Part shown: piece by piece, positions 4,740 through 21,685 of the stretch | Position numbering within the stretch: the stretch's first letter is position 1 | Layout: each line of letters opens with the position of its first letter | Assembly: GCA_963662715.1 (NCBI GenBank) | Contig: OY759724.1 | Location: 2,074,662-2,138,661 of the forward strand | Length of the DNA stretch: 64,000 bases | From: Candidatus Omnitrophota bacterium | Lineage (GTDB): Bacteria; Omnitrophota; Gorgyraeia; Zapsychrales; JANLHA01 | Reading direction: 5' to 3' | Translations under genes and position numbers: made by a program | The notes under the pieces: model-generated | What the model was told of the DNA's origin: nothing | Seen by the model: the letters and a program-made list of their open reading frames with translations, nothing else | Database searches by the model: none

Positions 4740-4986
4740 AGGTGCGCAAATCATAACATTCGTCCTTAGAGTTGTTGGGTGACACGGCCGTAGCTACTGT
4801 TCTGTCAGCCCCGCCGCTGTGTTTAATGTGATTTTTTTGCTTCTAAGATACCCCTGCCGCTGGCCGTGGTTTTCCCGGGCAGACCGGGGTGAAAACATTA
4901 AACTCGTATCCACGAAGGAATGAAGCCTCATCCGTTGACCCCGTAGGTTGCCATGGGGAAGGCAGAAGGGTTTATTTATTTTCTCC

Positions 4987-7401: not shown

Positions 7402-9322
7402 AGAATTGCCATTCGTCAGTATTCTGATGGCCACCAAAGATGAAAATCCGCAGTATTTGAAAGAAGCGGTCGATAGCATCTGCCGACAAAGCTATACAAA
7501 CTGGGAGTTTCTTATCTTGGATGACGGGTCTTCGACCCAGGATAATTATGATTGGCTTGTGCACAGATCGGAAGAAGACAAGAGAATTCATGTTTTCCGT
7601 GGCCCGGGCGTGGGGCTGGCCCGGGCGCTTAATTTTCTTATTCCCAAGGCGCAGGGAGAGTTTTTTGCCAGGATGGACAGTGACGACAGGGCTTATCCCG
7701 AAAGGATTATGAAGGAAGTTGAATATTTGATGCGGTATCCCAACACGGTCTTGGTGGGATCCTGGATCAGAATCATTGACGGGACCGGAGAACCGATTCA
7801 TCAGTCATGCCCTGCCGATTATTTCAGGCCTCCCTGGTCCAGGGCCGCGCATTCCGGCTGGTGCGGCCGGTTGGATGCTTTGAAGGCTATCGGCGGATAT
7901 TCTCCGGATTTCCCGGTGAGCCAGGATTATGACTGCTGGCTCCGTTTGCAGCGGCAGGGACGGGTGGGGGTGGTTGAGGAAATCCTTTTGGATTATCGGT
8001 GGGGCCGGATTAGCTCCGAACGCTCGGTTGAGCAGTTACAGTATTTCTGGATTGCGAATCAGATACACCGGGATAACTCAGGGATTCCCAAGGTCAGTGT
8101 CTCTTCGGTTAAGGCCAGGTTAAAGAAATATGATTTTTGGTACGGCAGGATGTTTCAATCCCAGTCTATCAGCCAGCAGGCTATGCGGCTTTGGCAACAA
8201 GGGGATTACCGCCAGTCTTTCAAGGAATTCCTGGCGTCTTTGAGAGTATTCCCTTTCAGCCTCCGGACATGGCTTTGTTCATTCCTCGTTTTGATATTTC
8301 ATAAATATCCTGCCCATATGACGCAATTTTTAAAATTGCGGGTGCTTTTGCCTCGCATACTGTATTTGAATCCCAAGCCGCCGTCTGCGGCTGTCTGTCT
8401 GCATTTTTCTGAGAATGGGGGCCGGGGTGGTTATCGTCTGGCTCTCGTTATTCCTACGGCCGACCGCCGGCAGGTGCTTCATCGATTTTTAAAAAGCGTT
8501 GAACCGCAAAAAAACTGCGTCTCCCAGATTATTATTGTTGACGGGGGCAGGAAACCGGTGGAGGACCTTGTCCGGGAATTTTCCCAGTTGCCCATTGATT
8601 ATGTCCGGGCCCCTTACCCGTGTCTGACCAGGCAGAAAAATCAGGGGATTGAGCATCTCCGTCCGGACATCGATCTTGTATGTTTTTTTGATGATGATAT
8701 TATCCTGGAAGAAAATGCCTTGGATAACATGATCCGTTTCTGGAAGAGCAGCGGGCAGGAGGTCGGCGGCGCGGCGTTTAACATTATCAATGTGGTCAAA
8801 AGGAAAACCTCTTTCATGAAGCGGATTTTTTTGACAGGAAGTGAAGCCAAGGGCCGGATTATGCGTTCCGGTTACGGGGCGATGCTTTCCCCCGTGGATG
8901 ACAGTATCTTTACAGACTGGATTTTCGGCGGAGCCACTGTCTGGCGGCGGGATATTTTTTCGACATATAAATTCGACGAGTGGTTTGAAGGCTACGGTTA
9001 TGGGGAGGACCTGGATTTCAGTTACAACGTGGGTAAAAAATATAAACTAGCGGTCATCTCCGAAGCCCGTGTGCAGCATATCAAAGACAATACAGAAGGT
9101 ATTGATTATGTCCTTTTTGGGAAAATGCAGGTTGTTAACCGGTATTATATTGTCAGAAAGTTTAAGGAATTTTCCACGCTGCTGTTTTTGTGGTCGTCCA
9201 GCGGACAGATGTTGGAAAATTTATATATGTTTCTGTTCAGAAGAAACAAAACCTACTTCTCCAGGCTTTTAGGCAATCTGTCCGGATTATGGCATATTAT
9301 CGTTCAGCCTCCCCGCGTATGA
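7391..9322 (+). CDS. Two-domain glycosyltransferase (tandem GT2 domains)
   Basis: Domain 1: VSILMATKDENPQYLKEAVDSICRQSYTNWEFLILDDGSS and DSDD. Domain 2: LALVIPTADRR...IIIVDGG, FFDDDI and YGEDLDFSY. It overlaps the previous stop by 11 nt. Confidence 0.8.
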   Translation: MPLKELPFVSILMATKDENPQYLKEAVDSICRQSYTNWEFLILDDGSSTQDNYDWLVHRSEEDKRIHVFRGPGVGLARALNFLIPKAQGEFFARMDSDDRAYPERIMKEVEYLMRYPNTVLVGSWIRIIDGTGEPIHQSCPADYFRPPWSRAAHSGWCGRLDALKAIGGYSPDFPVSQDYDCWLRLQRQGRVGVVEEILLDYRWGRISSERSVEQLQYFWIANQIHRDNSGIPKVSVSSVKARLKKYDFWYGRMFQSQSISQQAMRLWQQGDYRQSFKEFLASLRVFPFSLRTWLCSFLVLIFHKYPAHMTQFLKLRVLLPRILYLNPKPPSAAVCLHFSENGGRGGYRLALVIPTADRRQVLHRFLKSVEPQKNCVSQIIIVDGGRKPVEDLVREFSQLPIDYVRAPYPCLTRQKNQGIEHLRPDIDLVCFFDDDIILEENALDNMIRFWKSSGQEVGGAAFNIINVVKRKTSFMKRIFLTGSEAKGRIMRSGYGAMLSPVDDSIFTDWIFGGATVWRRDIFSTYKFDEWFEGYGYGEDLDFSYNVGKKYKLAVISEARVQHIKDNTEGIDYVLFGKMQVVNRYYIVRKFKEFSTLLFLWSSSGQMLENLYMFLFRRNKTYFSRLLGNLSGLWHIIVQPPRV

Positions 9323-9348: not shown

Positions 9349-10473
9349 ATGAGTCGAGTTATCCTGTGTTTGCTACATCTTCCTCCACCGCACATCGGGC
9401 CGTCAGTCATCAATGAATCGGTCATCCAGAGCCTTTCTTTGAACCCGGAATTCGAATGTGATGTTTTCCCGATCAATACGTCGAATCATATACAGCAGAT
9501 CAACCGGTTTTCATTAAAGAAAGTTTCTGTCCTTTTCACAATGAGCTTTAAGCTGATCAGGAGGTTGCTGAACAGAAAGTATCATTTGGTTTATATGTCC
9601 CTGACGCCTACGGGAATCGGATTCTTAAAAGATTTTATCCTGGTGATGATCTTGAAAATGCGGGGTGTTTGCCGGCTTTACCATCTGCATGGCAAAGGGG
9701 TTCATGAGAAACAGAACGTATTCATGACATGGCTTTACCGCCTGTGTTTTAAAGGAAGTCATGTCATTCTGCTGTCGGAAAGCCTTTATCCGGATATCAA
9801 GTGTTATGTTCCTCGTGAGCAGGTTTCGGTCATCCCTAACGGCGTCCCCGAGGATATTGATGCGAAAGCCTGGGAGAAAATAAGAGAGCGGCGGAGACAG
9901 CCTCATGTCTTTCATGTCCTTTTTTTAGCGAACCTGGTGAGAAGCAAGGGGATCTTCACGGCGTTGGAAGCGGTGCGTCAACTGCAGCAGAAGGAGCTGA
10001 AGTTCCAATTTTCTGTTGTCGGTGCGGATTTTGATGTCACACAGGCCGAACTGGTCGAATGGGTGGAGCAAAATGACCTGCAGGAAACGGTTTTTGTTTT
10101 AGGATACAGAAGCGGGGCGCAAAAACGGGAGATATTTGAAAGAGCGGATATTTTTATTTATCCGACACAAAAGGATACTTTTCCTCTGGTCCTTTTGGAA
10201 GCTATGCAGTACGGTTTGCCGGTCGTTTCGACTTTTGAGGGGGCTATCCCTGATATTGTTGACGCCAATCAGACCGGGTTCTTGGTCGCTCCCGGATCAG
10301 CAACGGATCTGGCGGAGAAGATTGAATTTTTAATGAAGGATACGGAATGGCGGAGCAACATGGGGGAACAGGCACGCGCCAAATTCGTCCGGGAGTATAC
10401 ATTTTTTATCTTTGAACATCGGCTGAGCGCTGTTTTTAAAAAGGTGTCTGATGATCGTGCAGCGCTATCTTAA
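9349..10473 (+). CDS. Glycosyltransferase family 4 (GT-B)
   Basis: C-terminal EDTFPLVLLEAMQYGLPVVSTFEGAIPDIV and TGFLV motifs typical of GT4/GT1. Confidence 0.85.
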   Translation: MSRVILCLLHLPPPHIGPSVINESVIQSLSLNPEFECDVFPINTSNHIQQINRFSLKKVSVLFTMSFKLIRRLLNRKYHLVYMSLTPTGIGFLKDFILVMILKMRGVCRLYHLHGKGVHEKQNVFMTWLYRLCFKGSHVILLSESLYPDIKCYVPREQVSVIPNGVPEDIDAKAWEKIRERRRQPHVFHVLFLANLVRSKGIFTALEAVRQLQQKELKFQFSVVGADFDVTQAELVEWVEQNDLQETVFVLGYRSGAQKREIFERADIFIYPTQKDTFPLVLLEAMQYGLPVVSTFEGAIPDIVDANQTGFLVAPGSATDLAEKIEFLMKDTEWRSNMGEQARAKFVREYTFFIFEHRLSAVFKKVSDDRAALS

Positions 10474-10482
10474 GGAGATCTC

Positions 10483-12384
10483 ATGTGCGGCATAAACGGA
10501 TTAAGTGGATTCCCGGAAGGGGCCGCGCTTGTCCAGAATATGAACCAGGCTATCAGGCACCGGGGGCCTGATGCCGAAGGCGTGTGGCAGGACGAGTGTT
10601 TGACGCTTGGGCATCGGCGGCTTTCGATTATCGACCTGTCTCCGGAGGCCAATCAGCCGATGGCGAGAGACGGTTTTATTATCGTTTATAACGGAGAAAT
10701 ATATAATTTCCGGGAATTAAGGGAAGATTTAAAACGAAAAGGAGCCCTTTTTAAGACGCGTTCGGATACCGAAGTCGTCCTGGAACTTTTTCGCCATTAT
10801 CGCGAGGAAAGTTTTTCTAAACTTCAGGGGATGTTTGCCTTTGGCCTCTACGATTGTAAGAATAAAGAATTGTATCTGGTCCGGGACTATTTTGGCATTA
10901 AACCTCTTTTCTACTGGCATGCGCCGCCTGACCGTTTGGCTTTCTCCTCGGAATGTAAATCGTTCCTGAATCTTCCGGGGTTCCGGAAGGAATTGAACCC
11001 CGGGGTTCTCGTCTCCTGCCTGAATTATCTTTGGCCGGCAGGGGATGAGGCTATTTTTAAGGATGTTTTCAAGGTCCCTCCGGCCCATTACCTGAAAGTG
11101 CGTTTTCAGCGTAACGGGATCGCTTTGACCCAAAGACGGTATTGGGAATGGCCGGATCCCCTTTTTTCTCCGGGGCCGGAGCAAGAACATATAGAGGCCT
11201 TATCCGCCATTCTTGAGAAGAGCGTTGAGGAACATCTTGTTTCCGATGTGCCTGTCGGAGCTTTTTTAAGCGGGGGGTTAGATTCTTCATTAATAACGAC
11301 GTTGGCCCGGAGGCATAATCCGGATTTGTCGACTTATACCATATCGATCTCGCGGAAAGCCCAGCAGGTGGAACGCATGCCGCGGGACAACTTTTATGCC
11401 CAGGCGGTGGCTTCGTATTTGGGTGTCCGTCATACAGATATTCCCGTAGAGCCTTCTGTGATCGACGCTTTGCAGAATATGGTTGAAATTTTGGACGAGC
11501 CGATCGGGGATCCGGCCGCAATTAATACTTATCTTATTTGCCGGCTGGCCCGGGAAAGAGGGATAAAAGTGCTTTTGTCCGGCATGGGGGCCGATGAAAT
11601 ATTTGCGGGGTACAGGAGGCATTATGCCACGCTCCTAAGCCGAAAAATACAGCGGTGCCCGGGGTTCATGAAAAAGGCCGTCTCCCGGACCCTTTCCGTT
11701 CTGCCGGTTCGTCTGGGCTCTTACGGCCTGCGGCCCGTCCGCTGGGCCAAGCGTTTTTTTTCTTTTGTCGACATGCCTTTCGCAGAAGCCTATATGCGCA
11801 GCTATTCCTATTATGACCGAAACGAGCTGAGAGAAATCTTTAACGGGCGGTATGATGCCGAGATTGATGAGCTATTCGATCACCATGACCGGCTTTTTAA
11901 CGACGCCAGAAACTGGGATGAGATCAATAGGATGTGTTTTACAGATATTCATATGTTCATGACGGGTTTGAATTTGACGTATACCGACCGGGCTTCTATG
12001 GCGGCTTCGGTGGAAGTCCGGGTGCCTTTTATTGACAAGAATGTTATAGAATGGGGCATGTCTTTGCCGGGTTCCTATAAGATTAAAAATAATACTTCAA
12101 AATATATTTTAAAGAAAGTGGCCGAACGGGATTTGCCGAAACGTATTGTTTACCGCCCCAAAGCTTCTTTCGGCATGCCTTTACGGGCTTGGATGAATGG
12201 AGAACTTCGGGAATTAGTGGACGATGTTTTATCTTATGATAATATAAAAAAGCGCGGGATTTTAAATCCTGACCTGGTCAGGACAATTATCCGAAGAGAC
12301 CGGGAAGGGCGGGAGGACCATGCGTACAGGATTTATCAATTTTTAACTTTGGAATTATGGTTGCGGAAAATCACCGGGGTATAG
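10483..12384 (+). CDS. asnB: Asparagine synthase (glutamine-hydrolysing) family amidotransferase
   Basis: N-terminal MCGI nucleophile, HRGPD and RRLSIIDLS. PP-loop SGGLDSS in the synthetase domain. RBS AAGGAG. Confidence 0.9.
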   Translation: MCGINGLSGFPEGAALVQNMNQAIRHRGPDAEGVWQDECLTLGHRRLSIIDLSPEANQPMARDGFIIVYNGEIYNFRELREDLKRKGALFKTRSDTEVVLELFRHYREESFSKLQGMFAFGLYDCKNKELYLVRDYFGIKPLFYWHAPPDRLAFSSECKSFLNLPGFRKELNPGVLVSCLNYLWPAGDEAIFKDVFKVPPAHYLKVRFQRNGIALTQRRYWEWPDPLFSPGPEQEHIEALSAILEKSVEEHLVSDVPVGAFLSGGLDSSLITTLARRHNPDLSTYTISISRKAQQVERMPRDNFYAQAVASYLGVRHTDIPVEPSVIDALQNMVEILDEPIGDPAAINTYLICRLARERGIKVLLSGMGADEIFAGYRRHYATLLSRKIQRCPGFMKKAVSRTLSVLPVRLGSYGLRPVRWAKRFFSFVDMPFAEAYMRSYSYYDRNELREIFNGRYDAEIDELFDHHDRLFNDARNWDEINRMCFTDIHMFMTGLNLTYTDRASMAASVEVRVPFIDKNVIEWGMSLPGSYKIKNNTSKYILKKVAERDLPKRIVYRPKASFGMPLRAWMNGELRELVDDVLSYDNIKKRGILNPDLVRTIIRRDREGREDHAYRIYQFLTLELWLRKITGV

Positions 12385-12465
12385 GAAAACAGGGAATTTT
12401 TTGGCCCCCGAACGCCAGGAAGCTCAGTGTTCCTGAAAAATAATTGCGAGGAGGTCTTTTGAGAT

Positions 12466-14610
12466 ATGAGACAGATTGTTCAAAACTTGAAAACCGGAGA
12501 GCTGATTTTAGAGAATGTCCCGGCGCCTTCCGGGCAGCCCGGCAAGGTGCTTGTACAGAACAGATATTCTCTGATCAGTGCCGGAACCGAACGCTCAACG
12601 GTTCATACCGGGAAATTGTCTCTGCTGGGAAAGGCTAAGAAGAGGCCGGATCTTGTCAAACAGGTTATGGCAAACATCCGGAAGGAAGGCCTGGCCTCGA
12701 CCATTCACAAAGTCAAAAATAAACTCAATTGGCCTAAAGCTTTGGGCTACAGCAGCTGTGGCATTGTTCTGGCTTCGGACCGGCAGGGCCTTTTTCAGGC
12801 CGGTGATCTTGTGGCCTGCGCCGGGCAGGATTATGCCTCTCATGCTGAGGTTGTCTGCGTCCCGCAGAACCTTACGGTTAAAGTGCCGCCAGGCGTGTCT
12901 CCCGAAGAAGCCTGTTTCACGACAGTGGGCGCCATTGCTTTGCAGGGTGTGCGGCAGGCGGATGTCCGGATCGGGGAAAAGGTCTGTGTTATCGGGCTGG
13001 GGCTTATCGGGCAGCTCACCGCTCAGATTCTCAAAGCCAACGGCTGTTTTGTGTTCGGGATCGATGTCAGCGATCATGCGCTGAAGCTGGCTGAGGATTT
13101 GGGGATACAGGCAGCGGCGCATAGAAAGGCGGCGCATCTTCATCAGAGTCTGAATGCCTTTGCCGGTCCGCACGGTTTTGATAAAGTGATTGTCGCGGCT
13201 TCGTGCCAGAATAATGATCCGGTCCTTTTGGCCGCGGAAGTGCTCCGGAAGAAAGGCCTCATGGTCGTGGTGGGCAACGTCCCGGTGGATATCCCCCGGG
13301 AACCGCATTTTTATAAGAAGGAACTGGAACTGAAAATGGCGACCTCCTACGGGCCGGGCCGGTATGATCCTTCTTATGAGGAGCACGGCCTGGATTATCC
13401 TTACCCCTATGTCAGGTTCACGGAAAACAGAAACATGGAGGTTTTCCTGCATTTAATCGTCCAGGGTATGGTGCAGGTCAAGCCGCTTATAAGCCATGTT
13501 TTCGACTTCGCCGAGGCTTTAAAGGCTTATGACGTGATCATGGAACAAAAAGAGCCGTATACCGGCATACTTTTAAAATATGATGAAAACAGCAGGGCCG
13601 TTGAAACGCGGCAGGTTGCTGTTCATCATGATCCGGTCAAGGCCATCAATGTCGGGTTTATCGGGGCGGGGAGTTTTGCCCAGGGACATCTTCTGCCTGC
13701 CTTGAAGCAATATGATGTTTCTCTCGATACGGTTGTCACGACACAGGGGGTTTCCGCCAAAAACGTCGCGGATAAATTCGGCTTTCGTACGGCTTCCACG
13801 GAGGCAGAGGCCGTATGCTCGGCCAAGGATATCAATACAGTATTCATTGCCACCCGGCACAACACGCATGCCGGTTTTGTTTTGAGATGCCTGGCAGCCC
13901 GGAAGCATATTTTTGTGGAGAAACCTTTATGCTTAACGGAGGACGACCTTAAAGAGATCGCGTCCTTAGGCCCGGGAGGGCGTTTGTTTATGGTGGGGTA
14001 CAACCGCCGTTTTGCCCCGCTGAGTGTTTATGTGAAGGAACATTTGCCGTCTGATATGCGTCCGGTCATGATGAATTTCAGAGTTAATGCCGGATATATC
14101 CCGGCAGAATCCTGGATACAGGACAAAGAGGTCGGGGGCGGCCGCATCCTCGGAGAACTTTGCCATTTTGTGGATCTGATGCTGTTTTTTTCCGGATCTG
14201 TCCCGCGCCGGGTTTCGGCTTTCGGGGTGACCCCGAGGGGCAAATGGCAGAGGGATGACAATCTTGTCGTACAGTTGGAATTCCAGAATGGCTCTGTAGG
14301 GCAGATTTTGTATACAGCCATGGGGTCCTCCCGGATGCCCAAAGAACATCTGGAGATTTTTGCCGGAGGGAGTTCTTTTGTCATCCATGATTTCCGGGAA
14401 GCTAAAATATTTGTTCAAGGCCGCGAATCAAACGTGCGCCGGCCGGGGAAAGGGCATAAAGAGGAAATCGCCGCCTTCATATCATCCCTGCGGGACGGGA
14501 CGGAAAGCCCTGTCCCCTTCGAACATATCCTTTCGGTGTCGCTGACAACTTTTAAGATTATAAAAAGCCTGGAAACCCAGTCATCACAACTGGTCGATAT
14601 TCATGAATGA
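12466..14610 (+). CDS. Bi-domain oxidoreductase: N-terminal MDR/zinc-ADH-like domain fused to a C-terminal Gfo/Idh/MocA domain
   Basis: The N-terminal half is MDR-like (VCVIGLGLIGQL NAD fold). The C-terminal half has INVGFIGAGSFAQGHLLPAL, EKPL and GYNRRF, typical of Gfo/Idh/MocA. RBS GAGGAGG. Confidence 0.8.
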   Translation: MRQIVQNLKTGELILENVPAPSGQPGKVLVQNRYSLISAGTERSTVHTGKLSLLGKAKKRPDLVKQVMANIRKEGLASTIHKVKNKLNWPKALGYSSCGIVLASDRQGLFQAGDLVACAGQDYASHAEVVCVPQNLTVKVPPGVSPEEACFTTVGAIALQGVRQADVRIGEKVCVIGLGLIGQLTAQILKANGCFVFGIDVSDHALKLAEDLGIQAAAHRKAAHLHQSLNAFAGPHGFDKVIVAASCQNNDPVLLAAEVLRKKGLMVVVGNVPVDIPREPHFYKKELELKMATSYGPGRYDPSYEEHGLDYPYPYVRFTENRNMEVFLHLIVQGMVQVKPLISHVFDFAEALKAYDVIMEQKEPYTGILLKYDENSRAVETRQVAVHHDPVKAINVGFIGAGSFAQGHLLPALKQYDVSLDTVVTTQGVSAKNVADKFGFRTASTEAEAVCSAKDINTVFIATRHNTHAGFVLRCLAARKHIFVEKPLCLTEDDLKEIASLGPGGRLFMVGYNRRFAPLSVYVKEHLPSDMRPVMMNFRVNAGYIPAESWIQDKEVGGGRILGELCHFVDLMLFFSGSVPRRVSAFGVTPRGKWQRDDNLVVQLEFQNGSVGQILYTAMGSSRMPKEHLEIFAGGSSFVIHDFREAKIFVQGRESNVRRPGKGHKEEIAAFISSLRDGTESPVPFEHILSVSLTTFKIIKSLETQSSQLVDIHE

Positions 14611-15805
14611 CATTTATGAGTCTTTGGTTCGTTTAAAGGATTATTGTCAAAAGGCCGGTTATCAAGGATGGGATCCTTTTGACGGGTTGAATTCTGCCTT
14701 TTTTCAGGCATCTTTTTTAAGAAATTCCCCTTTGTTTCGGATGTGCTGGATTCAGTTCTTTAAGCGAAGCCCGGTTAACCTGCGGTCGGTCTTTCGTGTC
14801 CCCAAAGGATTCAATCCTAAAGGCATAGCTTTGTTCTTGCGCGGTTATGTCTGTCTGGCCCGGGCTTTTCAGGATGAAGCGGATTTCGCGGTTATTCGTT
14901 CCCTCGCGGAGACATTGCGTAATTCTGTTTCGGCCGGATACTCCGGGTCTTGCTGGGGATATAACTTCGACTGGCAGTCCCGGGCTTTTTTTGTCCCCCG
15001 CGGAACCCCGAATGTGATCGTCTCGACTTTTGCGGGACATGCTTTACTGGATGTTTATGAACTTCAGGGGGAAAAAAAATTCATGCAGATGGCGGTGTCT
15101 GTCAGCGATTTTATCCGGCAGGATTTAAACCGCCAGGAGGATCAGCACGGCGGAATGTGTTTCTCCTACACGCCTTTAGATCACTCACGGATTTTCAACG
15201 CATCTCTTTTGGCGTCGGCTTTTTTAGCCCGGGTTTACCGTTTAACCCGCGACCCCGCGCTTTTTATTGACGCCCAGAGGTCCGTGTCTTTTTGCTGCCG
15301 GCAGCAAAATGCCGACGGCAGCTGGTTTTACGGTATGAACCCGAATCAGCGATGGATCGACAGCTTCCATACGGCGTATAATCTGGAGGCCCTTTTTCAA
15401 TATCAGGATTGGACGGGAGATGATCAGTTTCAGGGATTTTTTGAAAAGGGTTTTTCTTATTATGCGAAAAATTTCTTTACCGAAGAAGGGGTCCCTAAAT
15501 ATTATCACAATCGTATTTATCCTGTTGATGTTCATTCCACGGCCGGCCTGATTTCTCTTATGCTGATATCCGGCCGTCATGCCCGATATGCTGATCTGAA
15601 TAAAAATGTATTGAAGTGGACAATTCGGCATATGCAGTCTAAAATAGGATACTTTTATTACCAAATTCACAAATGGTGCAAGATTGACATCCCGTATATC
15701 CGCTGGACGCAGGCATGGATGTTTTATGCGTTGAGCTTTTACGTGTATTATCTGAAAAAGAACCGTTTGGCTTTTTCATCCGAAGGAGATTGTCAGGAAG
15801 AATGA
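14603..15805 (+). CDS. Uncharacterised soluble enzyme of polysaccharide loci; a guess is an alpha/alpha-toroid fold, epimerase/lyase-like
   Basis: A 400-aa ORF that overlaps both neighbours (8 nt and 4 nt). Repeated aromatic-rich motifs (CWGYNFDWQSR, ADGSWFYG, IDSFHTAYNLEAL). The function was not recognised with confidence. Confidence 0.6.
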   Translation: MNDIYESLVRLKDYCQKAGYQGWDPFDGLNSAFFQASFLRNSPLFRMCWIQFFKRSPVNLRSVFRVPKGFNPKGIALFLRGYVCLARAFQDEADFAVIRSLAETLRNSVSAGYSGSCWGYNFDWQSRAFFVPRGTPNVIVSTFAGHALLDVYELQGEKKFMQMAVSVSDFIRQDLNRQEDQHGGMCFSYTPLDHSRIFNASLLASAFLARVYRLTRDPALFIDAQRSVSFCCRQQNADGSWFYGMNPNQRWIDSFHTAYNLEALFQYQDWTGDDQFQGFFEKGFSYYAKNFFTEEGVPKYYHNRIYPVDVHSTAGLISLMLISGRHARYADLNKNVLKWTIRHMQSKIGYFYYQIHKWCKIDIPYIRWTQAWMFYALSFYVYYLKKNRLAFSSEGDCQEE

Positions 15806-16911
15806 CACGAAGAAAAAAAGTCGTTTTTGTCGCCGGGGCCAGACCGAATTTCATGAAAATTGCCTGTCTGCTTAAGGAATGCCGCAAGTATAAGGCGATC
15901 CGGGCTATTGTTGTCCATTCCGGCCAGCATTATGATAACGAGATGTCGGAACAGTTTTTTAAAGATTTGGACATTGCTCCTCCCCGGTATTTTCTGGGGG
16001 TCGGGTCAGGGAGCCATGCCGAGCAGACAGGTCGTGTGATGGTGGCCTTCGAAAAGATCTGCCAAAAGGAGCGTCCCGATTACGTTGTGGTCGTCGGTGA
16101 TGTCAACTCCACGGTCGCGGCCTGCCTGGCCGCCAAGAAATGTCATATCCGCGTAGCCCATATCGAAGCAGGGTTGAGAAGTTTTGATATGGCGATGCCG
16201 GAAGAGATCAACCGCATGGTGACCGACAGTATTTCCGATGACCTCTTTGTCACGGAACAGAGCGGTGTCACCCATTTACGGAAAGAGGGGCATGCTGCGA
16301 AGAAAATTCATTTTGTCGGAAACACCATGATAGACAGCCTTATCCTGGCGATGAAAAAGATTCAACGTATGGACCCGCGGTCCTGGACGAGTTATCCTTT
16401 GCAGGAACAGTTGTCTTCTTATGGCTTGCTGACTCTGCACCGGCCCAGCAATGTTGACAGCAAAACGCAGCTTAAGCGATTGCTGGCTGTGGTTGATCAA
16501 GTGGCCCAGGAGATTCCCATCATATTCCCTGCGCATCCCCGGACCCGTAAAAGCATCAGAGAGTTTAAAGTTAAATTATCAAAGAATATTCATCTTACCC
16601 ATCCGTTAGGCTATTTGGAGTTTATCTTTTTATGCCAGAAAGCCGGATTCATTTTGACGGACAGCGGGGGGATTCAGGAAGAGACGACCTTTTTGAAAGT
16701 CCCCTGTTTCACTCTGAGGGCCAACACGGAACGTCCGGTCACTCTTGAAAAAGGGACGAACATCCTTGTCGGAAATAACATAGAGCAAATTCCCCGCCTC
16801 GTTCATCAGGTCCTCCGCGGTCAGTCCCGGGCGGGCCAGACGCCCCCTTTATGGGACGGGAGGGCCTCTCAGCGGATCATAAAAATTTTGGTGCGGAAAT
16901 TAATGATATGA
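15802..16911 (+). CDS. wecB: UDP-N-acetylglucosamine 2-epimerase (non-hydrolysing)
   Basis: VVFVAGARPNFMKI, HSGQHYD, VVVGDVNST, HIEAGLRSFD and LTDSGGIQEE motifs. ATG 15802 forms an ATGA overlap with the upstream stop. Confidence 0.9.
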   Translation: MTRRKKVVFVAGARPNFMKIACLLKECRKYKAIRAIVVHSGQHYDNEMSEQFFKDLDIAPPRYFLGVGSGSHAEQTGRVMVAFEKICQKERPDYVVVVGDVNSTVAACLAAKKCHIRVAHIEAGLRSFDMAMPEEINRMVTDSISDDLFVTEQSGVTHLRKEGHAAKKIHFVGNTMIDSLILAMKKIQRMDPRSWTSYPLQEQLSSYGLLTLHRPSNVDSKTQLKRLLAVVDQVAQEIPIIFPAHPRTRKSIREFKVKLSKNIHLTHPLGYLEFIFLCQKAGFILTDSGGIQEETTFLKVPCFTLRANTERPVTLEKGTNILVGNNIEQIPRLVHQVLRGQSRAGQTPPLWDGRASQRIIKILVRKLMI

Positions 16912-17681
16912 TAAGAGAGAGACGGATTAATATCCTGGACTGCCCCATTGATAACCTGAGCCGTAAAGAAACGGTGGCTCTGATTGAAGATATGATCCGT
17001 CAACGGCTCTCTTGCCAGCATGTCGTTATTAATGTTGACAAGCTTTTAAAAGTGCGGCGGGACCGGAAACTTCATGATATTATTTCTCAGTGCGACATCA
17101 TTAATGCTGACGGCATGCCGATTGTCTGGGTTTCCCGTTGGCTGGGCCAGCCTTTGCCGGAAAGGGTGGCCGGTATTGATCTGATGCATGATCTGGTGTC
17201 GTTGTCTGCGCAAAAGAACTATAGGATCTTTTTCCTGGGAGCCCGGCAGGATGTTGTGCAAGCCGTTGTCGGGAAATATCGGATGCTGTACCCGGACATT
17301 AACATTGTGGGGTTCCGGAACGGATACTGGCCGGAATCGGAAGAGGAAGACGTGGTTAACGAAATCAGAGCCGCGGCCCCGGATATCCTTTTTGTCGCGA
17401 TGAGCTCCCCGAAAAAGGAAATGTTTTTAAACAGATACCGGCAGAAACTTCGTGTCCCTTTTGTTATGGGCGTCGGAGGCAGCTTTGACGTGGTGGCCGG
17501 ATATACGCAACGGGCTCCCCTTTGGATGCAACGGCGTGGTCTGGAATGGCTGTTCCGTCTTATGCAGGAACCGAAACGCATGTGGAGACGATATTTGATC
17601 GGTAACACGCAATTTGTTTTTATCGTGGCCCGCGAGATGTTTGGTCCCAAGGCCAGAAGAAACAGCCCGCAGCATCAGTAA
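16908..17681 (+). CDS. WecG/TagA/CpsF-family glycosyltransferase (N-acetylmannosaminyl(uronosyl)transferase-like)
   Basis: INADGMPIVW, FFLGARQDVV, DILFVAMSSPKKE and LEWLFRL motifs. ATG 16908 forms an ATGA overlap with the wecB stop. Confidence 0.85.
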   Translation: MIRERRINILDCPIDNLSRKETVALIEDMIRQRLSCQHVVINVDKLLKVRRDRKLHDIISQCDIINADGMPIVWVSRWLGQPLPERVAGIDLMHDLVSLSAQKNYRIFFLGARQDVVQAVVGKYRMLYPDINIVGFRNGYWPESEEEDVVNEIRAAAPDILFVAMSSPKKEMFLNRYRQKLRVPFVMGVGGSFDVVAGYTQRAPLWMQRRGLEWLFRLMQEPKRMWRRYLIGNTQFVFIVAREMFGPKARRNSPQHQ

Positions 17682-17756
17682 GAATTTTATCCTGTTGCGC
17701 CCACGCGCTATTTTATTATCCCTCTACAATATAAAATAAGCCTGCCGTTCCTTCCC

Positions 17757-17783
17757 GTTCCGGATGGGGAAAAACTCCGGAAC
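17757..17783 (+). terminator. 8-bp hairpin downstream of the WecG-like gene; no T-tract, so terminator function is uncertain
   Basis: gttccgga (17757-17764) pairs with tccggaac (17776-17783) across an 11-nt loop. It lies in a 232-bp AT-rich spacer. Confidence 0.3.
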
Positions 17784-17913
17784 AGGAAAAATTATTGGCA
17801 GGTGTTTTGAAAAATGCTGTATGGATGTATAATTGATATTGCGAAATTAAAAATGAATAGGTAAAATGTAACATTATTAAAATTTATCATTCTAATACTA
17901 ATAATCTTTTTGT

Positions 17914-19323
17914 ATGATCACTTCCATCAGAAAAATCTATCCTCTTTATATCTTCATTGATTTTGTCTTGATCTGGAGCAGTTTTATCATTCCGTATTTT
18001 TTAAAATACAACGCCATTACGGATATTTTCCGGGTGATCACGCTGCCCAACCTTGATCAGTATATTTTTATCTTCGTTCTTTGGACGATATTTATCGTCA
18101 GTTTTTTTCAGGGAAAAGGTCTTTACGCCACGGACCGGAGCCTGCCCATCCCCAAAGAAATGGCGCGGGTGGCCTTAAATCTTTTTTATGTCAGCGTGAT
18201 CATGGCCGCCATCATATTTTTCGCTCAGTATAAATTTTTTTCCCGGAAGGTCTTCCTGGAGAACTTTTTGTCTTTATGTTTTTTGCTGGGAGGGTGGAGG
18301 GTCATCAAGAGGCTTATTCTGCGCAAGCTGATCGCCGGCGGCTTTCATAATATTAATGTCTTGATTGTCGGGGCCGGAAAAGTCGGGGGCGTCGTTCTGG
18401 AGGAAATCCGGCAGAATCCGCAGTGGGGATTCCATATTGTCGGATTCCTGGACGATCGTAAAGAGGAAATCGACGGATTCCCTGTCCTCGGGAAGGTGCG
18501 GGACTTTCCCTCGGTGGCCCGGAAACACTTTGTCGATGAAATTGTTGTGACAATCCCGTCTGTGCGGGAACTTATCGGGGATATTATCAAGAAGGCCAAA
18601 ACCATGCATCTCGGGGTGAGAATCGTTCCGGAGAATTTTGAAGGGCCGCTGTCTTTTATCGAAATCAATTATATGGGCATCATTCCCTTGCTGACATATA
18701 AACAGCGGAAACATCATCCTACGGAGTTTGCCCTTAAACGGCTGTTTGATATCATGCTGTCATTCGTGTTTATTGTTTTGTCATCCCCTTTATTTGTTGT
18801 TATCTCCCTTTTGATTAAATGGGATTCTCCGGGGCCGGTTTTTTATGTCCAACAGAGGGTCGGATTAAAAGGGAAGCGTTTTAATCTGTTTAAATTCCGT
18901 TCCATGTTCGATGGCGCTGAGCAAATGAAGTCCAGACTGTTAAATAATAATGAAGTGAAAGACGGTGTTATTTTTAAAATGAAAAAGGATCCCCGGGTCA
19001 CCCGTTTCGGGAAGTTGTTGCGGAAGTACAGCCTGGATGAATTGCCGCAGCTTTTTAATGTTTTTAAAGGGGACATGAGCCTGGTCGGCCCCCGGCCGCC
19101 GACCCCGGATGAGGTTGAACAATATCAACAGCAGGATTTGCAGCGCTTGTCCATCCGGCCGGGTGTTACGTGCATTTCTCAGGTCCGGGGCCGAAGCGAC
19201 CTGTCGTTTAAAAGATGGGTTAAATGGGATTTGTGGTATATCAATAACTGGTCTTTTGGTTTAGATATGCAGATTCTGCTGTGGACCGTGCCCGCCGTCA
19301 TAAAAGGAAAAGGAGCTTACTGA
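17914..19323 (+). CDS. Polyprenyl-phosphate glycosyl-1-phosphate transferase (WbaP/exopolysaccharide initiating 'bacterial sugar transferase')
   Basis: N-terminal TM segments and a central Rossmann-like VLIVGAGKVGG region. The C-terminal catalytic domain has KRLFDIMLS..., PGPVFYVQQRVG, FKFRSM, DELPQL and GDMSLVGPRP. Confidence 0.9.
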   Translation: MITSIRKIYPLYIFIDFVLIWSSFIIPYFLKYNAITDIFRVITLPNLDQYIFIFVLWTIFIVSFFQGKGLYATDRSLPIPKEMARVALNLFYVSVIMAAIIFFAQYKFFSRKVFLENFLSLCFLLGGWRVIKRLILRKLIAGGFHNINVLIVGAGKVGGVVLEEIRQNPQWGFHIVGFLDDRKEEIDGFPVLGKVRDFPSVARKHFVDEIVVTIPSVRELIGDIIKKAKTMHLGVRIVPENFEGPLSFIEINYMGIIPLLTYKQRKHHPTEFALKRLFDIMLSFVFIVLSSPLFVVISLLIKWDSPGPVFYVQQRVGLKGKRFNLFKFRSMFDGAEQMKSRLLNNNEVKDGVIFKMKKDPRVTRFGKLLRKYSLDELPQLFNVFKGDMSLVGPRPPTPDEVEQYQQQDLQRLSIRPGVTCISQVRGRSDLSFKRWVKWDLWYINNWSFGLDMQILLWTVPAVIKGKGAY

Positions 19324-19335
19324 TGCTGGAAAGGC

Positions 19336-20637
19336 GTGGACAGGTCAATGGCCGGAAATATTAATGTCTCTGCCATCATCCGTTTCTTGCTGTTCGGCCT
19401 TATTGTCTGCCTGCCTTATAGCAAAGCTATTATTGAGACATGTGTCATTCTTTCCCTGGTGCTCTGGTTCTCAGTGCGCCTGAAGCTTCTCGTTCATCCC
19501 AAAGGCCCTGACCGGCAGGGGGGGGCTTCCCGGAGCTGGGGTGATGTTATAAAACCTCCTCCAACACCCCTCAACACAGCGATTTTGTTTTTTGTCATCA
19601 TTTGTTTGTGTTCTGCCGTTTTCAGCATTAATCCCGCGAAATCTTTCCATGGTTTTATCACAAAAACGCTGGAATGGTTTGCCGTATTTTATCTCATGGT
19701 CGGGGTCTTTACGACCAAGAGACAGCTGGCCACGGCGGTTGTCCTTTATCTTGCGACATCATGCGTGACGTGTTTGGACGGCATCGTGCAATTTTACTGG
19801 TTAGGGCATGACGTGATCCGTCAGCGTTTGTTGATCCGGGACGGAGCCACAGCTGCTTTCTCTCATCCCAACAGCCTTGCCGGTTATCTGACCATTGTCG
19901 TGCCCTGCGTATTTTCCCTGTGTTTTTCCCCGGGGCTAAAAGTAAGGCTTCGTCTGGCGTTAATGTCTTTGTGGAGTATTATGAGCTGGGCCTTGATCCT
20001 GACCTTCTCCCGGTCGGGCATTTTCGCCGGTCTGGCGGGGGTCCTGTTTTTTATTTGCCATAAGAGCAAGCCCGTATTTATCTGGATATGTATTCTCGCC
20101 GTTTTGCTCGCCGGAAGTTTTTTGCGTTTTGCGCCTCATGAGGTCCGCAAGCGTACGCGTACCCGGCCGGAAATTGTTTCGGATGATGTGAAATGGCGGT
20201 GGCATCTCTGGCAGGACAGCTTGGCTTTGGTCCGGGAGAGGCCGTGGGTGGGCCACGGATTGAATACTTATATGGATCTGATACATCGCAAAAGACCTGA
20301 TGCGGCTCCGGTTTATGCACATAACTGTTACGTTCAAATCATGGTGGAAACCGGCGTTCTGGGCCTGGCAGGTTTCCTGTGGATCCTGTTCGCCCTTGGA
20401 AAAGCCGTATTCGGAAGCCTGTCAAGCCCGACGGACCGTGTTGCCGACCGGCGGCTATCAGGCCTTATTCTAGGTTTGTATTCAGGGGTGGTCGCGTTTT
20501 TGGTCCACAGCTTTTTTGAAGTCCATTTTTATTCTTTGCAACTATCAGTTTACTTTTGGCTTATTGCCGGTATACTAATCTCTGGAATCTCTATGCAGAC
20601 GCATTATAAGAAATGTGAAGAAAATATTATTATTTGA
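19336..20637 (+). CDS. O-antigen ligase/polymerase-like membrane protein (Wzy_C-type), paralogue 2
   Basis: Polytopic; motifs [11 protein letters not shown] and [17 protein letters not shown]. Start is GTG 19336 or ATG 19348. Confidence 0.8.
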
Positions 20638-20653
20638 AGAGGGAGGCTCATCC

Positions 20654-21667
20654 ATGAAAAAGAGAAAAGTGGCCCTGATCACCGGTATTACGGGACAGGA
20701 TGGCGCTTATTTGTCGGAATTATTGCTTAAAAAGAAATATGATGTTTATGGACTGATCAGACGGTCCAGCACGTTCAATACAACACGCATTGATCATCTC
20801 TATCAGGATCCTCATGAAAAGGATGTTCAATTGCGGCTGCTTTACGGGGATCTCAATGACGCGAGTTCTCTGAACCGGATTATCAGGACTATAAAACCGG
20901 ACGAGATATATAATCTTGGAGCGCAGAGTCATGTCAAGGTCAGTTTTGAGATCCCGGAATACACGGGAGAGATTGTCGGGCTGGGGACGACGCGTCTGCT
21001 GGAAGCCATACGGGATTCAGGTATTAAAGCGAAATTTTATCAGGCTTCAAGCAGTGAAATGTTTGGTAAAGTTCTCGAGATCCCTCAATCTGAAAAGACC
21101 CCGTTTTATCCCCGCAGCCCTTATGCGGCGGCGAAAGTCTACTCTTATTGGATGACCGTCAATTACCGGGAAGCTTATAATATTTTCGCCTGCAACGGTA
21201 TTCTTTTTAACCATGAATCTCCCCGGAGAGGGGAGACCTTCGTGACCCGGAAAATTACCATGGCCCTGGCCCGGATTAAACACGGAGTGCAGGATAAGCT
21301 TTTTTTAGGGAATCTGGACGCTAAAAGAGACTGGGGTTTTGCCGGGGATTATGTTGAAGCCATGTGGTTGATGTTGCAGCAGAAGACCCCGGCTGATTAT
21401 GTCATCGCGACCGGCCAGACGCATTCTGTGCGGGAATTTCTTTTAGAAGCGTTCTCCTATTTAAAGATGGATTGGAAAAAACATGTCAGGATCGATAAGC
21501 GCTATTTCCGGCCAACGGAAGTAGATCTCCTCATAGGCAACAGTTCAAAAGCCCGCAGAAAATTGAAATGGAAACCCCGAGTGAACTTTAAGCAGTTAGT
21601 CCGTATGATGGTTGATGCTGACCTGGAACTAGTTGAACGTCAGCTTTACGGCCAGAAGAAATCTTAA
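20654..21667 (+). CDS. gmd: GDP-mannose 4,6-dehydratase, canonical short-form paralogue
   Basis: [58 protein letters not shown] and [24 protein letters not shown] lies before ATG 20654; the track start at 20615 is an upstream extension. Confidence 0.9.
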
Positions 21668-21685
21668 GATCCTTTAGAGATCATC

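Follow-up and report, generated by a model that had tools for sequence, protein, structure and literature searches.

A VpsJ-family protein and a bi-domain oxidoreductase as candidate tailoring enzymes in an Omnitrophota polysaccharide operon

Introduction

In the VPS pathway of Vibrio cholerae, ManNAc(A) is the second sugar and is tailored afterwards. VpsJ was proposed in 2026 to be the C5-epimerase which converts lipid-linked ManNAcA to L-GulNAcA, and genetic and LC-MS evidence supports the need for VpsJ in this conversion (PMC13463779). Deletion of vpsJ leads to accumulation of the unmodified BPP-Glc-ManNAcA disaccharide, and the proposed epimerase activity rests on this phenotype and on fold similarity (PMC13463779).

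EPS I of Ralstonia solanacearum includes N-acetylgalactosaminuronic acid (PMC12846841, PMC3759889). In its eps operon, genes for a heparinase II/III-like protein of 570-611 aa and for a GT4 follow an oxidoreductase gene, wecC adjoins wecB, and a bacillosamine derivative serves as initiating sugar. The original EPS I structural work is said to have found the N-acetylgalactosaminuronic acid in the L configuration. The oxidoreductase and heparinase-like pair is probably the putative WeeE/WeeF (GnlA/GnlB), which was postulated to make L-GalNAcA (PMC9676051).

We analyzed a 64-kb window from a Candidatus Omnitrophota bacterium (contig OY759724.1). A sequence-only reading had delimited five genes in it, asnB, an oxidoreductase gene, a gene for a 400-aa protein, wecB and wecG, as a unit building a modified ManNAc-derived residue.

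Results

Gene layout

The features of the region are as follows, in window positions.

4948-7401, + strand: polytopic membrane protein of 817 aa, YfhO-like (Pfam YfhO matches at the C-terminal end only), opening a tightly spaced run
7391-9322, + strand: two-domain GT2 glycosyltransferase protein, 643 aa (Pfam Glycos_transf_2, two stretches)
9349-10473, + strand: GT4 glycosyltransferase, VpsI-position counterpart (Pfam Glycos_transf_1)
10483-12384, + strand: glutamine amidotransferase of the AsnB type (633 aa), predicted to amidate a uronate (Pfam GATase_7 and Asn_synthase; stop TAG)
12385-12465, no strand: intergenic gap, 81 nt (GC 0.46; ribosome-binding site GGAGG at 12450-12454, 11 nt before the ATG at 12466)
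12466-14610, + strand: 714-aa bi-domain oxidoreductase in which an MDR dehydrogenase lacking zinc ligands is fused to a Gfo/Idh/MocA dehydrogenase (Pfam)
14603-15805, + strand: 400-aa member of the VpsJ family with an (alpha/alpha)6 barrel, predicted to epimerize a ManNAc(A) residue at C5 (or 3,5)
15802-16911, + strand: WecB, non-hydrolysing UDP-GlcNAc 2-epimerase, 369 aa (TIGR00236, 322 bits, cutoff 210)
16908-17681, + strand: VpsK-like WecG/TagA/CpsF (GT26) transferase, 257 aa (TIGR00696, 175 bits, cutoff 69; stop TAA)
17682-17913, no strand: AT-rich spacer, 232 nt (GC 0.33)
17914-19323, + strand: polyprenyl-phosphate hexose-1-phosphate transferase (PHPT), VpsL-like initiating enzyme (TIGR03025, 425 bits, cutoff 296)
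19336-23155, + strand: Wzy_C-like membrane protein, GDP-mannose 4,6-dehydratase and second Wzy_C-like protein (Pfam)

The Pfam and TIGRFAM scores bear out the earlier domain calls for AsnB, the MDR+GFO fusion, WecB and the WecG/TagA family, and the earlier coordinates of the overlaps, gap and spacer are all correct. The oxidoreductase gene and the gene for the 400-aa protein overlap by 8 nt (ATGAATGA at 14603-14610, with the ATG at 14603 and the TGA at 14608-14610), and the next two junctions are ATGA overlaps at 15802-15805 and 16908-16911. The starts at 15802 and 16908, shorter than those of the longest open reading frames, give the 369- and 257-aa products of the public record. No terminator-like site was found on the + strand of the 81-nt gap.

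The five-gene delimitation does not hold at its left edge, which is arbitrary. The GT4 stop lies 9 nt before the asnB ATG, with AGGAG in between, and tight spacing reaches back to 4948, with an 11-nt overlap between the YfhO-like and double-GT2 genes and 26 nt between the latter and the GT4 gene. On the right, the spacer is real (GC 0.33 against 0.50 for the cassette), but the claim that it closes the unit is not confirmed: it contains no terminator-like site, and the PHPT gene beyond it functionally belongs to the same pathway as the cassette. Two weak promoter-like sites (9/12) lie in the spacer at 17839-17867 and 17877-17905. PHPT is 32% identical to the VpsL-position gene (E 6e-51), and its TIGR03023 (WcaJ) score of 375 bits is under the cutoff of 411.

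The 400-aa protein

The 400-aa protein, for which no chemistry had been assignable, belongs by sequence comparison to the VpsJ family and is a predicted epimerase. Its identity is 37% (E 1e-82) with a protein named VpsJ by JGI and 34% (E 4e-70) with the product of the VpsJ-position gene in a colinear vps-like cluster of Pseudoalteromonas, so that identity to VpsJ-family proteins is only 34-37%. The order of that cluster is wecB-wecC-...-VpsD family-...-VpsF family-...-phenylacetate-CoA-ligase-like-GT4-[J]-...-WecG family-UndP-Glc transferase. Its VpsK-position protein is 48% identical to our WecG (E 6e-88). The best match of our GT4 within it is the VpsI-position GT4 (24% identity, E 3e-21), which falls with ours into one BLAST cluster (c5) present in 42 loci.

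The VpsJ-family comparison has 69 invariant columns, including two His and several Asp, Glu and Arg. The fold is confidently an (alpha/alpha)6 barrel. Its neighbors include AGE and cellobiose 2-epimerase, the same as given for VpsJ, and the protein also bears the 'aspartate-semialdehyde dehydrogenase' misannotation mentioned for VpsJ (PMC13463779). The barrel is just as close to GH76 and GH88 hydrolases, which counts against the epimerase reading.

The bi-domain oxidoreductase

The oxidoreductase, likewise previously left without chemistry, belongs to the family of the Ralstonia EPS I operon, which is probably the putative WeeE/GnlA postulated for L-GalNAcA. It has more than 8000 full-length homologues under the PGAP name 'bi-domain-containing oxidoreductase' and aligns with the EPS I protein along its entire length at 40% identity (E 5e-165). 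Pfam places ADH_zinc_N at residues 181-299 and GFO_IDH_MocA at 394-640, with GxGxxG motifs at 177-182 and 400-405 and EKP at 485-487. In the AF2 model (pLDDT 85) each half matches a complete enzyme. Structure matches are TADH and the levoglucosan, scyllo-inositol, DgpA and KanD2 dehydrogenases, and the GFO half is similar to enzymes that dehydrogenate ring secondary alcohols.

A Sphingobium plasmid repeats the oxidoreductase, heparinase-like and GT4 arrangement of the R. solanacearum eps operon, and in Proteobacteria the family is found with wecB-wecC. The heparinase-like partner has no detectable sequence similarity to the 400-aa protein, so the two can be equated only by analogy.

AsnB and the source of the carboxylate

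AsnB-type amidotransferases of the WbpS type occur in O-antigen loci, for example that for GalNAcAN in P. aeruginosa O6. Our AsnB shares with the TIGR03108 enzymes, and presumably with those of the WbpS type, a full-length class II glutaminase plus Asn-synthase architecture within a polysaccharide operon. Its N terminus is MCG, with the nucleophile Cys2 present. It aligns end to end with TIGR03108 (XrtA/PEP-CTERM amidotransferase) at 485 bits, under the cutoff of 817, and unlike for that family no exosortase context was seen in the window. With 473 bits it also clears the generic asparagine-synthase threshold (TIGR01536, cutoff 267), a point against the pathway preferred below. A UDP-ManNAc dehydrogenase (WecC) was looked for across the 64-kb window and not found.

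Related loci

We compared 54 related loci, complete for 8 kb on each side. wecG lies at most two genes downstream of the VpsJ-like gene in 40 of them; 38 contain a PHPT and 28 a member of the GT4 cluster. The oxidoreductase is near the VpsJ-like gene in 38 loci; it lies immediately upstream of it in 28 and no more than three genes away in 36. PHPT comes after wecG or wecB in most loci, and the GT4 accompanies the cassette in other genomes too. In one Omnitrophota MAG the gene order is identical, flanks included. Among the related loci, the YfhO-like protein is common only to L003 and L004, and L003 repeats the gene order of 19336-23155.

AsnB tracks the oxidoreductase (14/38 loci with it, 1/16 without; Fisher p = 0.02) and a VpsH-like ligase tracks its absence (9/38 against 14/16; p = 3e-5), p-values that are optimistic because the loci are not phylogenetically independent. 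Carboxylate-amidating enzymes (AsnB, VpsH-like or ATP-grasp) occur in 23 of the 38 oxidoreductase loci. wecB is present in 27 of these and WecC in 3, an anticorrelation between WecC and the oxidoreductase which is not significant (p = 0.18); two loci (L058 and L069) combine the oxidoreductase family with both wecB and wecC. With so few WecC genes there and none found in our window, no source of the carboxylate that AsnB would need was seen here, which counts against the pathway preferred below.

Discussion

With middling confidence, we propose that the cassette forms the core of a Wzx/Wzy-type polysaccharide operon on the plan of V. cholerae VPS and serves sugar supply and tailoring. PHPT would form undecaprenyl-PP-hexose, and WecB would provide UDP-ManNAc; should the genome encode a UDP-ManNAc dehydrogenase outside the window, the donor would be UDP-ManNAcA. 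The VpsK-like WecG would add ManNAc(A) as the second residue onto the lipid-linked hexose. On this residue, the VpsJ-like barrel protein and the translationally coupled oxidoreductase may invert stereocenters: one dehydrogenase domain would transiently oxidize a ring hydroxyl, probably at C4, the barrel protein would epimerize C5 and possibly C3 via enolates, and the other domain would reduce the ketone. The predicted product is L-GalNAcA, or L-GulNAcA with C5 alone inverted; by stereochemical reasoning, these are the 3,5-epimer and the 5-epimer of D-ManNAcA. AsnB would then amidate the C6 carboxylate with ammonia from glutamine, replacing the glycine-adding VpsH, and the VpsI-like GT4 would attach the next sugar.

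This route resembles that of GDP-mannose 3,5-epimerase (GME) both in its outcome, D-manno to L-galacto with L-gulo as the 5-epimer, and in the transient C4 oxidation, enolate epimerization and re-reduction. The likeness is a mechanistic analogy without homology. GME combines these steps in one SDR enzyme that acts on a nucleotide sugar, whereas the cassette would split the functions between the MDR/GFO protein and the (alpha/alpha)6 barrel.

The locus shares with VPS a VpsL-like PHPT, WecB in the role of VpsA, a VpsJ-family protein, a VpsK-like GT26 transferase and a VpsI-like GT4. It differs in that the window has no VpsB/WecC, the cassette has AsnB instead of the CapK-like glycine ligase VpsH, and the VpsJ-like gene is translationally coupled to that of an additional bi-domain oxidoreductase. 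The other glycosyltransferases are different as well, and a YfhO-like protein and two GDP-mannose dehydratases are present. The EPS I operon is similar in its oxidoreductase followed by an alpha/alpha-toroid protein, its linked GT4 and its WecB, and its polymer includes an N-acetyl-hexosaminuronic acid, said to be of the L series like the proposed cassette product. Its heparinase-like partner, adjoining wecB-wecC and initiating sugar set it apart from the cassette, and it lacks AsnB and a WecG-family transferase.

Most known sugar epimerizations act on nucleotide sugars, and all four enzymes are predicted to be soluble, so the oxidoreductase and barrel protein might instead turn UDP-ManNAc(A) into UDP-L-GalNAc(A) before the WecG transfer. 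The Acinetobacter gnlAB nomenclature assumes that level, naming the products UDP-L-GalpNAcA (PMC9676051). We nevertheless consider this order of events rather unlikely. The lipid-linked Glc-ManNAcA that accumulates in the vpsJ deletion indicates that VpsJ acts after the WecG-type transfer, and V. cholerae VpsK transfers a D-manno donor (PMC13463779); the identities of our proteins to the VpsJ family (37%) and to the VpsK-position enzyme (48%) argue for the same order here.

The absence of WecC from the window and its scarcity in the oxidoreductase loci despite wecB suggest another role, in which the oxidoreductase oxidizes C6 of ManNAc to the uronic acid in two steps, on UDP-ManNAc or after transfer. 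Two dehydrogenase domains would fit two oxidation steps, and the carboxylate would serve both C5-H abstraction by the VpsJ-like protein and amidation by AsnB, in line with the frequency of carboxylate-amidating enzymes in these loci. However, the Ralstonia and Sphingobium operons already have adjacent wecB-wecC, as L058 and L069 have both genes, and the anticorrelation is not significant. The GFO half is unlike primary-alcohol or aldehyde dehydrogenases, and the catalytic-Cys chemistry of aldehyde dehydrogenases is not evident. We therefore regard this replacement as improbable and disfavor the earlier term 'oxidised' in the sense of C6 oxidation. The barrel protein could also be a glycoside hydrolase or lyase and trim or release the polymer, as PssZ, PslG and BcsZ do in other exopolysaccharide operons, with the oxidoreductase and AsnB modifying another sugar. 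Such enzymes act outside the cytoplasm, whereas the 400-aa N terminus has no visible signal peptide or membrane anchor and the start and stop codons of its gene overlap those of the cytoplasmic dehydrogenase and WecB genes. The protein is also a VpsJ-family member, and loss of vpsJ stalls a lipid-linked intermediate that has yet to be tailored further (PMC13463779), which makes a hydrolase or lyase very improbable.

The analysis shows family memberships, folds, gene order and co-occurrence, and we infer from it each catalytic step, the lipid-linked stage of tailoring and the identity of the product. The earlier idea that a residue derived from ManNAc is modified, and probably amidated, is supported. 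The earlier view that the two proteins have no assignable chemistry is partly undercut, as they match the VpsJ family and the EPS I, probably WeeE-type, family, whose functions are themselves proposals. Recent proposals that both families make rare L-sugars from N-acetylmannosamin(uron)ic acid render the cassette interpretable. The polysaccharide operon around this five-gene core is longer and widely conserved, and its amidated product is probably L-GalNAcAN or L-GulNAcAN.

Organization of the locus

In the ORF map, an uninterrupted series of + strand genes begins at the start of the window and reaches about 23155; pgk and tpiA come next. According to the Pfam and NCBIfam searches, the upstream part contains genes for a methyltransferase, a GT2, a 528-aa ORF without a match, a GDP-mannose 4,6-dehydratase, and a YfhO-like protein. 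The order continues with a 2xGT2 protein, GT4, AsnB, the MDR+GFO fusion, the 400-aa protein, WecB, a GT26 WecG/TagA/CpsF transferase, the polyprenyl-phosphate hexose-1-phosphate transferase (PHPT), and two Wzy_C-like proteins around a second GDP-mannose dehydratase.

Features of the locus (all on the + strand)
1935-3521, 528-aa ORF
3699-4739, first GDP-mannose 4,6-dehydratase
4948-7401, 817-aa YfhO-like membrane protein
9349-10473, GT4
10483-12384, asnB
81-nt intergenic gap after asnB, with GGAGG 11 nt upstream of the ATG at 12466
12466-14610, 714-aa MDR+GFO fusion (bi-domain oxidoreductase)
14603-15805, 400-aa protein
from 15802, wecB
from 16908, wecG, with its stop at 17681
17914-19323, PHPT
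19336-20637, Wzy_C/O-antigen-ligase-like protein
20615-21667, second GDP-mannose 4,6-dehydratase
21686-23155, Wzy_C/O-antigen-ligase-like protein

Base-by-base reading of the junctions confirmed every coordinate and junction that the sequence-only reading had given for the five-gene cassette from asnB to wecG. The 3' end of the fusion gene extends 8 nt into the 400-aa gene (ATGAATGA, 14603-14610), and ATGA overlaps are located at 15802-15805 and 16908-16911. Translation from the shorter starts at 15802 and 16908 yields proteins of 369 and 257 aa, identical to entries in public protein collections. The 232-nt spacer 3' of wecG has a GC content of 0.33, compared with 0.50 for the cassette. The consensus scan for promoters and terminators, informative only for the lack of terminator-like sites in the two gaps, found none in the 81-nt gap or the 232-nt spacer, and it placed two weak promoter-like sites in the spacer. 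The cassette genes therefore have the layout of a translationally coupled operon, being on one strand with overlapping or abutting stop and start codons and no internal terminator.

The left edge, which had been set at asnB, has to be moved. The GT4 gene ends 9 nt 5' of the asnB ATG with AGGAG in between, 26 nt separate the two-domain GT2 gene from the GT4 gene downstream, and the GT2 gene overlaps the YfhO-like gene by 11 nt. Because this tight spacing extends upstream to the GT4, GT2, and YfhO-like genes, the five-gene cassette is, judged from its sequence, a real tightly coupled block, yet the middle of a longer unit.

Several other features of the region were recorded. The two GDP-mannose 4,6-dehydratases are paralogues (50% identical) within one polysaccharide locus, and no GDP-4-keto-6-deoxymannose reductase, epimerase, or aminotransferase was recognized among the locus genes scanned. 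The two Wzy_C-like proteins belong to one BLAST cluster and stand on either side of the second dehydratase, an arrangement also present in L003, the locus of an Omnitrophota MAG. No Wzx, Wza, or Wzc was recognized in the scanned part of the locus. The 528-aa ORF, inside the polysaccharide locus, has no Pfam match at E ≤ 0.001 and occurs in none of the fetched loci. The match of the 817-aa protein to YfhO/PgfM-type glycosyltransferases is confined to its C-terminal 80 residues, and besides the window the protein is common only to L003 and L004, the locus of a 'Planctomycetales' MAG. Farther downstream, 48049-48254 and 49480-49904 hold tRNA-Met (CAT), tRNA-Val (CAC), and a class A bacterial RNase P RNA (164 bits).

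AsnB, WecB, and the GT26 transferase

AsnB has the class II glutaminase plus synthase architecture, with an MCG N terminus, GATase_7 at 44-162, and Asn_synthase (PP-loop) at 241-628, and it also scores above the generic asparagine-synthase model TIGR01536. WecB reaches the equivalog level of TIGR00236 (322 bits, cutoff 210). The GT26 transferase matches the superfamily model TIGR00696 (175 bits vs 69) and falls under all equivalog cutoffs (E. coli WecG 142/323, TarA 151/350, EpsA 182/500). Its closest relative among those tested is a VpsK-position protein, with 48% identity, and its donor would be either ManNAc or ManNAcA.

Relationship of the 400-aa protein to VpsJ

In a July 2026 study of the assembly of V. 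cholerae polysaccharide (VPS), VpsA, VpsB, and VpsK act like WecB, WecC, and WecG, placing ManNAcA onto BPP-glucose (PMC13463779). Deletion of vpsJ led to a buildup of the unmodified disaccharide, and the predicted fold of VpsJ resembles GlcNAc 2-epimerase and cellobiose 2-epimerase. On the basis of this phenotype and fold similarity, VpsJ was proposed to be a new C5-epimerase acting on the lipid-linked disaccharide to give L-GulNAcA, and the CapK-like VpsH adds glycine next (PMC13463779).

The 400-aa protein has no family match above threshold in Pfam or NCBIfam, only a sub-threshold GH88 match in Pfam, and single-sequence and profile searches found no sequence relatives in the PDB. It folds as an (alpha/alpha)6 barrel, and its structural neighbors include AGE and cellobiose 2-epimerase. 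There are at least 5600 homologues, mostly in Bacteroidota, and some are misnamed 'delta-aminolevulinic acid dehydratase' or 'YesR'. A tblastn search of annotated plasmids and chromids found a Pseudoalteromonas gene with 34% identity over 94% of the length, annotated as 'aspartate-semialdehyde dehydrogenase', an odd association also reported for VpsJ (PMC13463779). The annotation around this gene is colinear with vpsA-vpsO. The cluster begins with wecB, wecC, a serine acetyltransferase, a VpsD-family GT, and Wzx-like, VpsF-family, acetyltransferase, and hypothetical genes. It continues with a phenylacetate-CoA-ligase-like gene (VpsH position), a GT4 (VpsI position), and the tblastn match itself (VpsJ position; 34% identity to the 400-aa protein, E 4e-70), and ends with an acyltransferase, a WecG-family GT (VpsK position), an UndP-glucose phosphotransferase (VpsL position), and export genes. 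A search with the Pseudoalteromonas protein returned Vibrio, Pseudoalteromonas, Colwellia, and Moritella proteins. One of these, P0290, is named 'polysaccharide biosynthesis protein VpsJ' by JGI and is 37% identical to the 400-aa protein over 379 aa (E 1e-82).

Membership in the VpsJ family was thus set via the colinear Pseudoalteromonas cluster and the JGI-named VpsJ, which stand in for V. cholerae VpsJ. The alignment across both subfamilies has 69 invariant columns, including H256, H311, D123, D253, E262, D309, R55, R61, R127, and R367. Owing to the identity to the JGI-named protein, the colinear Pseudoalteromonas gene, and these columns, we filed the 400-aa protein as a member of the VpsJ family, whose enzymology is itself a proposal.

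VpsJ-family homologues were also observed on haloarchaeal and Methanosarcina plasmids (Haloferax, Halomarina, Methanosarcina, and others; 27-35% identity, >90% coverage), several of them misannotated as 'antibiotic ABC transporter permease'. Their occurrence fits the gulosaminuronic acid reported in Halococcus cell walls (PMC3210612).

The bi-domain oxidoreductase

The 714-aa protein, named 'bi-domain-containing oxidoreductase' by NCBI, has >8000 full-length homologues, with at least 52% identity among the best matches. The AlphaFold2 model (pLDDT 85) contains two complete dehydrogenases in one chain. In Foldseek searches, the N-terminal half resembles medium-chain alcohol dehydrogenases (TADH, TM ~0.8 on the target). 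Read against MDR motifs, it has SAGTE and GYS at what we take to be the positions of the catalytic zinc ligands in the MDR family. The Foldseek matches of the C-terminal half are Gfo/Idh/MocA enzymes that oxidize ring secondary alcohols (levoglucosan and scyllo-inositol dehydrogenases, 1,5-anhydrofructose reductase, DgpA, and KanD2). The Rossmann motifs (GxGxxG at 177-182 and 400-405) and EKP at 485-487 are invariant. Pfam, AlphaFold2, and Foldseek agree on a single chain with an N-terminal MDR and a C-terminal Gfo/Idh/MocA part, each with its own Rossmann motif.

A tblastn search of plasmids with the oxidoreductase matched 132 Ralstonia megaplasmids, and the R. solanacearum homologue is 40% identical over 714 aa (E 5e-165). 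The annotated megaplasmid locus is recognizably the eps (EPS I) operon. It starts with a phosphatase, a tyrosine kinase, UDP-GlcNAc 2-epimerase, wecC, two transporters, a GT, and an acyltransferase, and ends with the oxidoreductase, a 'heparinase' that has Hepar_II_III N and C domains, a GT4, and bacillosamine-type genes. This core (wecB-wecC ... oxidoreductase - heparinase II/III - GT4) recurs on a Sphingobium plasmid. The original structure paper on EPS I is said to describe its uronic acid as L-configured. EPS I consists of N-acylated galactosamine, galactosaminuronic acid, and bacillosamine (PMC12846841, PMC3759889). The A. baumannii K-locus update postulates that UDP-L-GalNAcA is made by neighboring homologues of WeeE and WeeF, for which it uses the new names GnlA/GnlB (PMC9676051). 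By gene order and literature, WeeE/WeeF are very probably the same oxidoreductase and heparinase-like pair.

In contrast to the heparinase-like partner in Ralstonia and Sphingobium, the gene adjoining the window oxidoreductase is VpsJ-like, and no heparinase II/III-like partner of the GnlB/WeeF type stands next to it. The 400-aa protein has no Hepar_II_III Pfam domain. An hhalign comparison of the VpsJ-like profile with the heparinase-like protein of Ralstonia found no similarity (probability 0.03), and we claim no homology of the two partners.

Gene neighborhoods of the VpsJ-like relatives

One genome per species was scanned for relatives of the 400-aa protein; 590 were confirmed, of which the best 80, mostly from Bacteroidota, were used. 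The two closest, from an Omnitrophota MAG and a 'Planctomycetales' MAG, showed 59-60% identity. ORFs were called in the loci and clustered by BLAST, the gene order was read, and recurrent clusters were annotated with Pfam. Unless stated otherwise, counts refer to the 54 loci, among the best 80 of 590, with at least 8 kb on both sides.

A wecG gene lies within two genes 3' of the VpsJ-like gene in 40 of the 54 complete loci, and in 54 of the 75 loci with enough downstream sequence. The oxidoreductase gene is directly 5' of the VpsJ-like gene in 28/54, at most three genes upstream in 36/54, and anywhere in the locus in 38/54. PHPT was found in 38/54, wecB in 32/54, and the window's GT4 cluster, which includes the VpsI-position GT4, in 28/54. 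The window has the linkage to GT26 and Glc/Gal-1-P PHPT genes of the VpsJ family, with wecB, wecG, and PHPT directly after the VpsJ-like gene. The Omnitrophota locus has the exact window order, including the flanking Wzy_C-Gmd-Wzy_C and pgk/tpi genes. The order of window 4948-25237, with pgk and tpiA downstream, is common to L003 and L004 (59-75% protein identity), and the window probably belongs to the lineage of these MAGs.

Two flavors of locus emerge, with and without the oxidoreductase. AsnB occurs in 14/38 loci with it and 1/16 without it (Fisher p 0.02), whereas a VpsH/CapK-like ligase occurs in 9/38 and 14/16, respectively (Fisher p 3e-5); both p-values are optimistic because the loci are phylogenetically related. 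A WecC orthologue (>45% to E. coli WecC) was found in 3/38 vs 4/16 loci, a difference that is not significant in the Fisher test.

Other genes occupy some of the slots. In several Bacteroidota loci (L020, L022, L030, L046, L055, L058, L069, L074, L075, L081), a conserved trio takes the wecG slot after the VpsJ-like gene and may be an alternative transfer or tailoring module. It consists of a DUF354 protein, a Gfo/Idh/MocA oxidoreductase that stands alone, and a 291-aa protein without a Pfam match. Directly 5' of the oxidoreductase, an MBOAT acyltransferase and a 314-aa protein of an unknown family are found in L006, L013, L016, L021, L023, L040, L048, L075, and L078, and a PHP-domain protein and an 802-aa protein with a class I/II aminotransferase domain in L017, L036, and L060. 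Both pairs offer additional options for tailoring around this core.

Proposed pathway and alternatives

With D-ManNAcA as the substrate, L-GulNAcA is the 5-epimer and L-GalNAcA the 3,5-epimer. GDP-D-mannose, GDP-L-gulose, and GDP-L-galactose have the same relation in the GDP-mannose 3,5-epimerase reaction, which proceeds via a transient 4-keto intermediate. VPS-type loci, where VpsJ occurs alone, make the 5-epimer, whereas loci known or thought to make L-GalNAcA have the bi-domain oxidoreductase beside a toroid protein. By analogy, the most economical reading would be that one dehydrogenase domain oxidizes a ring hydroxyl of the residue, the toroid protein epimerizes the carbons flanking the ketone, and the second domain reduces the ketone. 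AsnB would then amidate the carboxylate, taking the amide-forming role in the window instead of VpsH, which adds glycine in VPS, and chain extension would fall to the VpsI-like GT4. This tailoring would take place on the lipid-linked disaccharide, with VpsJ as the model.

We suggest, as a tentative and rather doubtful possibility, that the oxidoreductase and the alpha/alpha-toroid protein form a previously unrecognized split, redox-assisted 3,5-epimerase system acting on lipid-linked ManNAc(A). One domain would oxidize C4, the toroid protein would invert C5 and C3, and the second domain would reduce the ketone. In loci without WecC, the C-H acidity would come from the transient ketone and not from the C6 carboxylate.

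The main rival to epimerization on the lipid-linked disaccharide places it at the UDP-sugar level, as the Acinetobacter nomenclature assumes. The weak point of the proposed pathway is the absent WecC: no tblastn match to E. coli WecC was found in the 64-kb window at E < 1e-8, and Pfam, NCBIfam, and tblastn found no UDP-sugar 6-dehydrogenase there. WecC may be encoded in another part of the 3.36-Mb genome, the carboxylate may be a product of the oxidoreductase, or the residue may be neutral, with a different target for AsnB. Of these, substitution of the oxidoreductase for WecC is disfavored because members of its family are found alongside wecB-wecC in Ralstonia, in Sphingobium, and in two Bacteroidales loci, and because the GFO half resembles secondary-alcohol dehydrogenases. 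Reductive amination of a GFO-made ketone with AsnB-derived ammonia was rejected because it has no precedent and because the adenylating synthase domain of AsnB is intact. Membership in the VpsJ family, the lack of an export signal, and the coupling of its gene to those of cytoplasmic enzymes make it unlikely that the barrel protein is a hydrolase.

Significance

L-GulNAcA and L-GalNAcA occur in surface polymers such as V. cholerae VPS, Ralstonia EPS I, the P. aeruginosa O10/O19 O-antigen, and Acinetobacter capsules, and we know of no biochemical demonstration of their biosynthesis. Each part of the cassette belongs to a described, biochemically unproven family, so the finding is not categorically new, and the sequence-only statement that no chemistry could be assigned to the 400-aa and fusion proteins is outdated, the chemistry itself being still a proposal. 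We found no description of a WeeE/GnlA-type oxidoreductase translationally coupled to a VpsJ-type partner, in place of a heparinase-type one, and joined with AsnB, WecB, and WecG.

VpsJ and the WeeE/GnlA-type oxidoreductase, which were proposed separately, are here one translationally coupled pair in a very common cassette, whose thousands of homologues come mostly from Bacteroidota, with others in Omnitrophota and Planctomycetota MAGs. This arrangement joins two literatures on L-aminouronic acid synthesis into a concrete, testable mechanism, and predicts that the choice between AsnB and a VpsH-like ligase follows the presence or absence of the oxidoreductase. The VpsJ-family misannotations as 'delta-aminolevulinic acid dehydratase', 'aspartate-semialdehyde dehydrogenase', 'YesR', and 'antibiotic ABC transporter permease' are also corrected. 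If the split epimerase is real, the VpsJ-like proteins here and the heparinase II/III-like biosynthetic proteins of Proteobacteria would be functional analogues, and the system would explain the origin of L-GalNAcA-type and L-GulNAcA-type sugars across bacteria and archaea.
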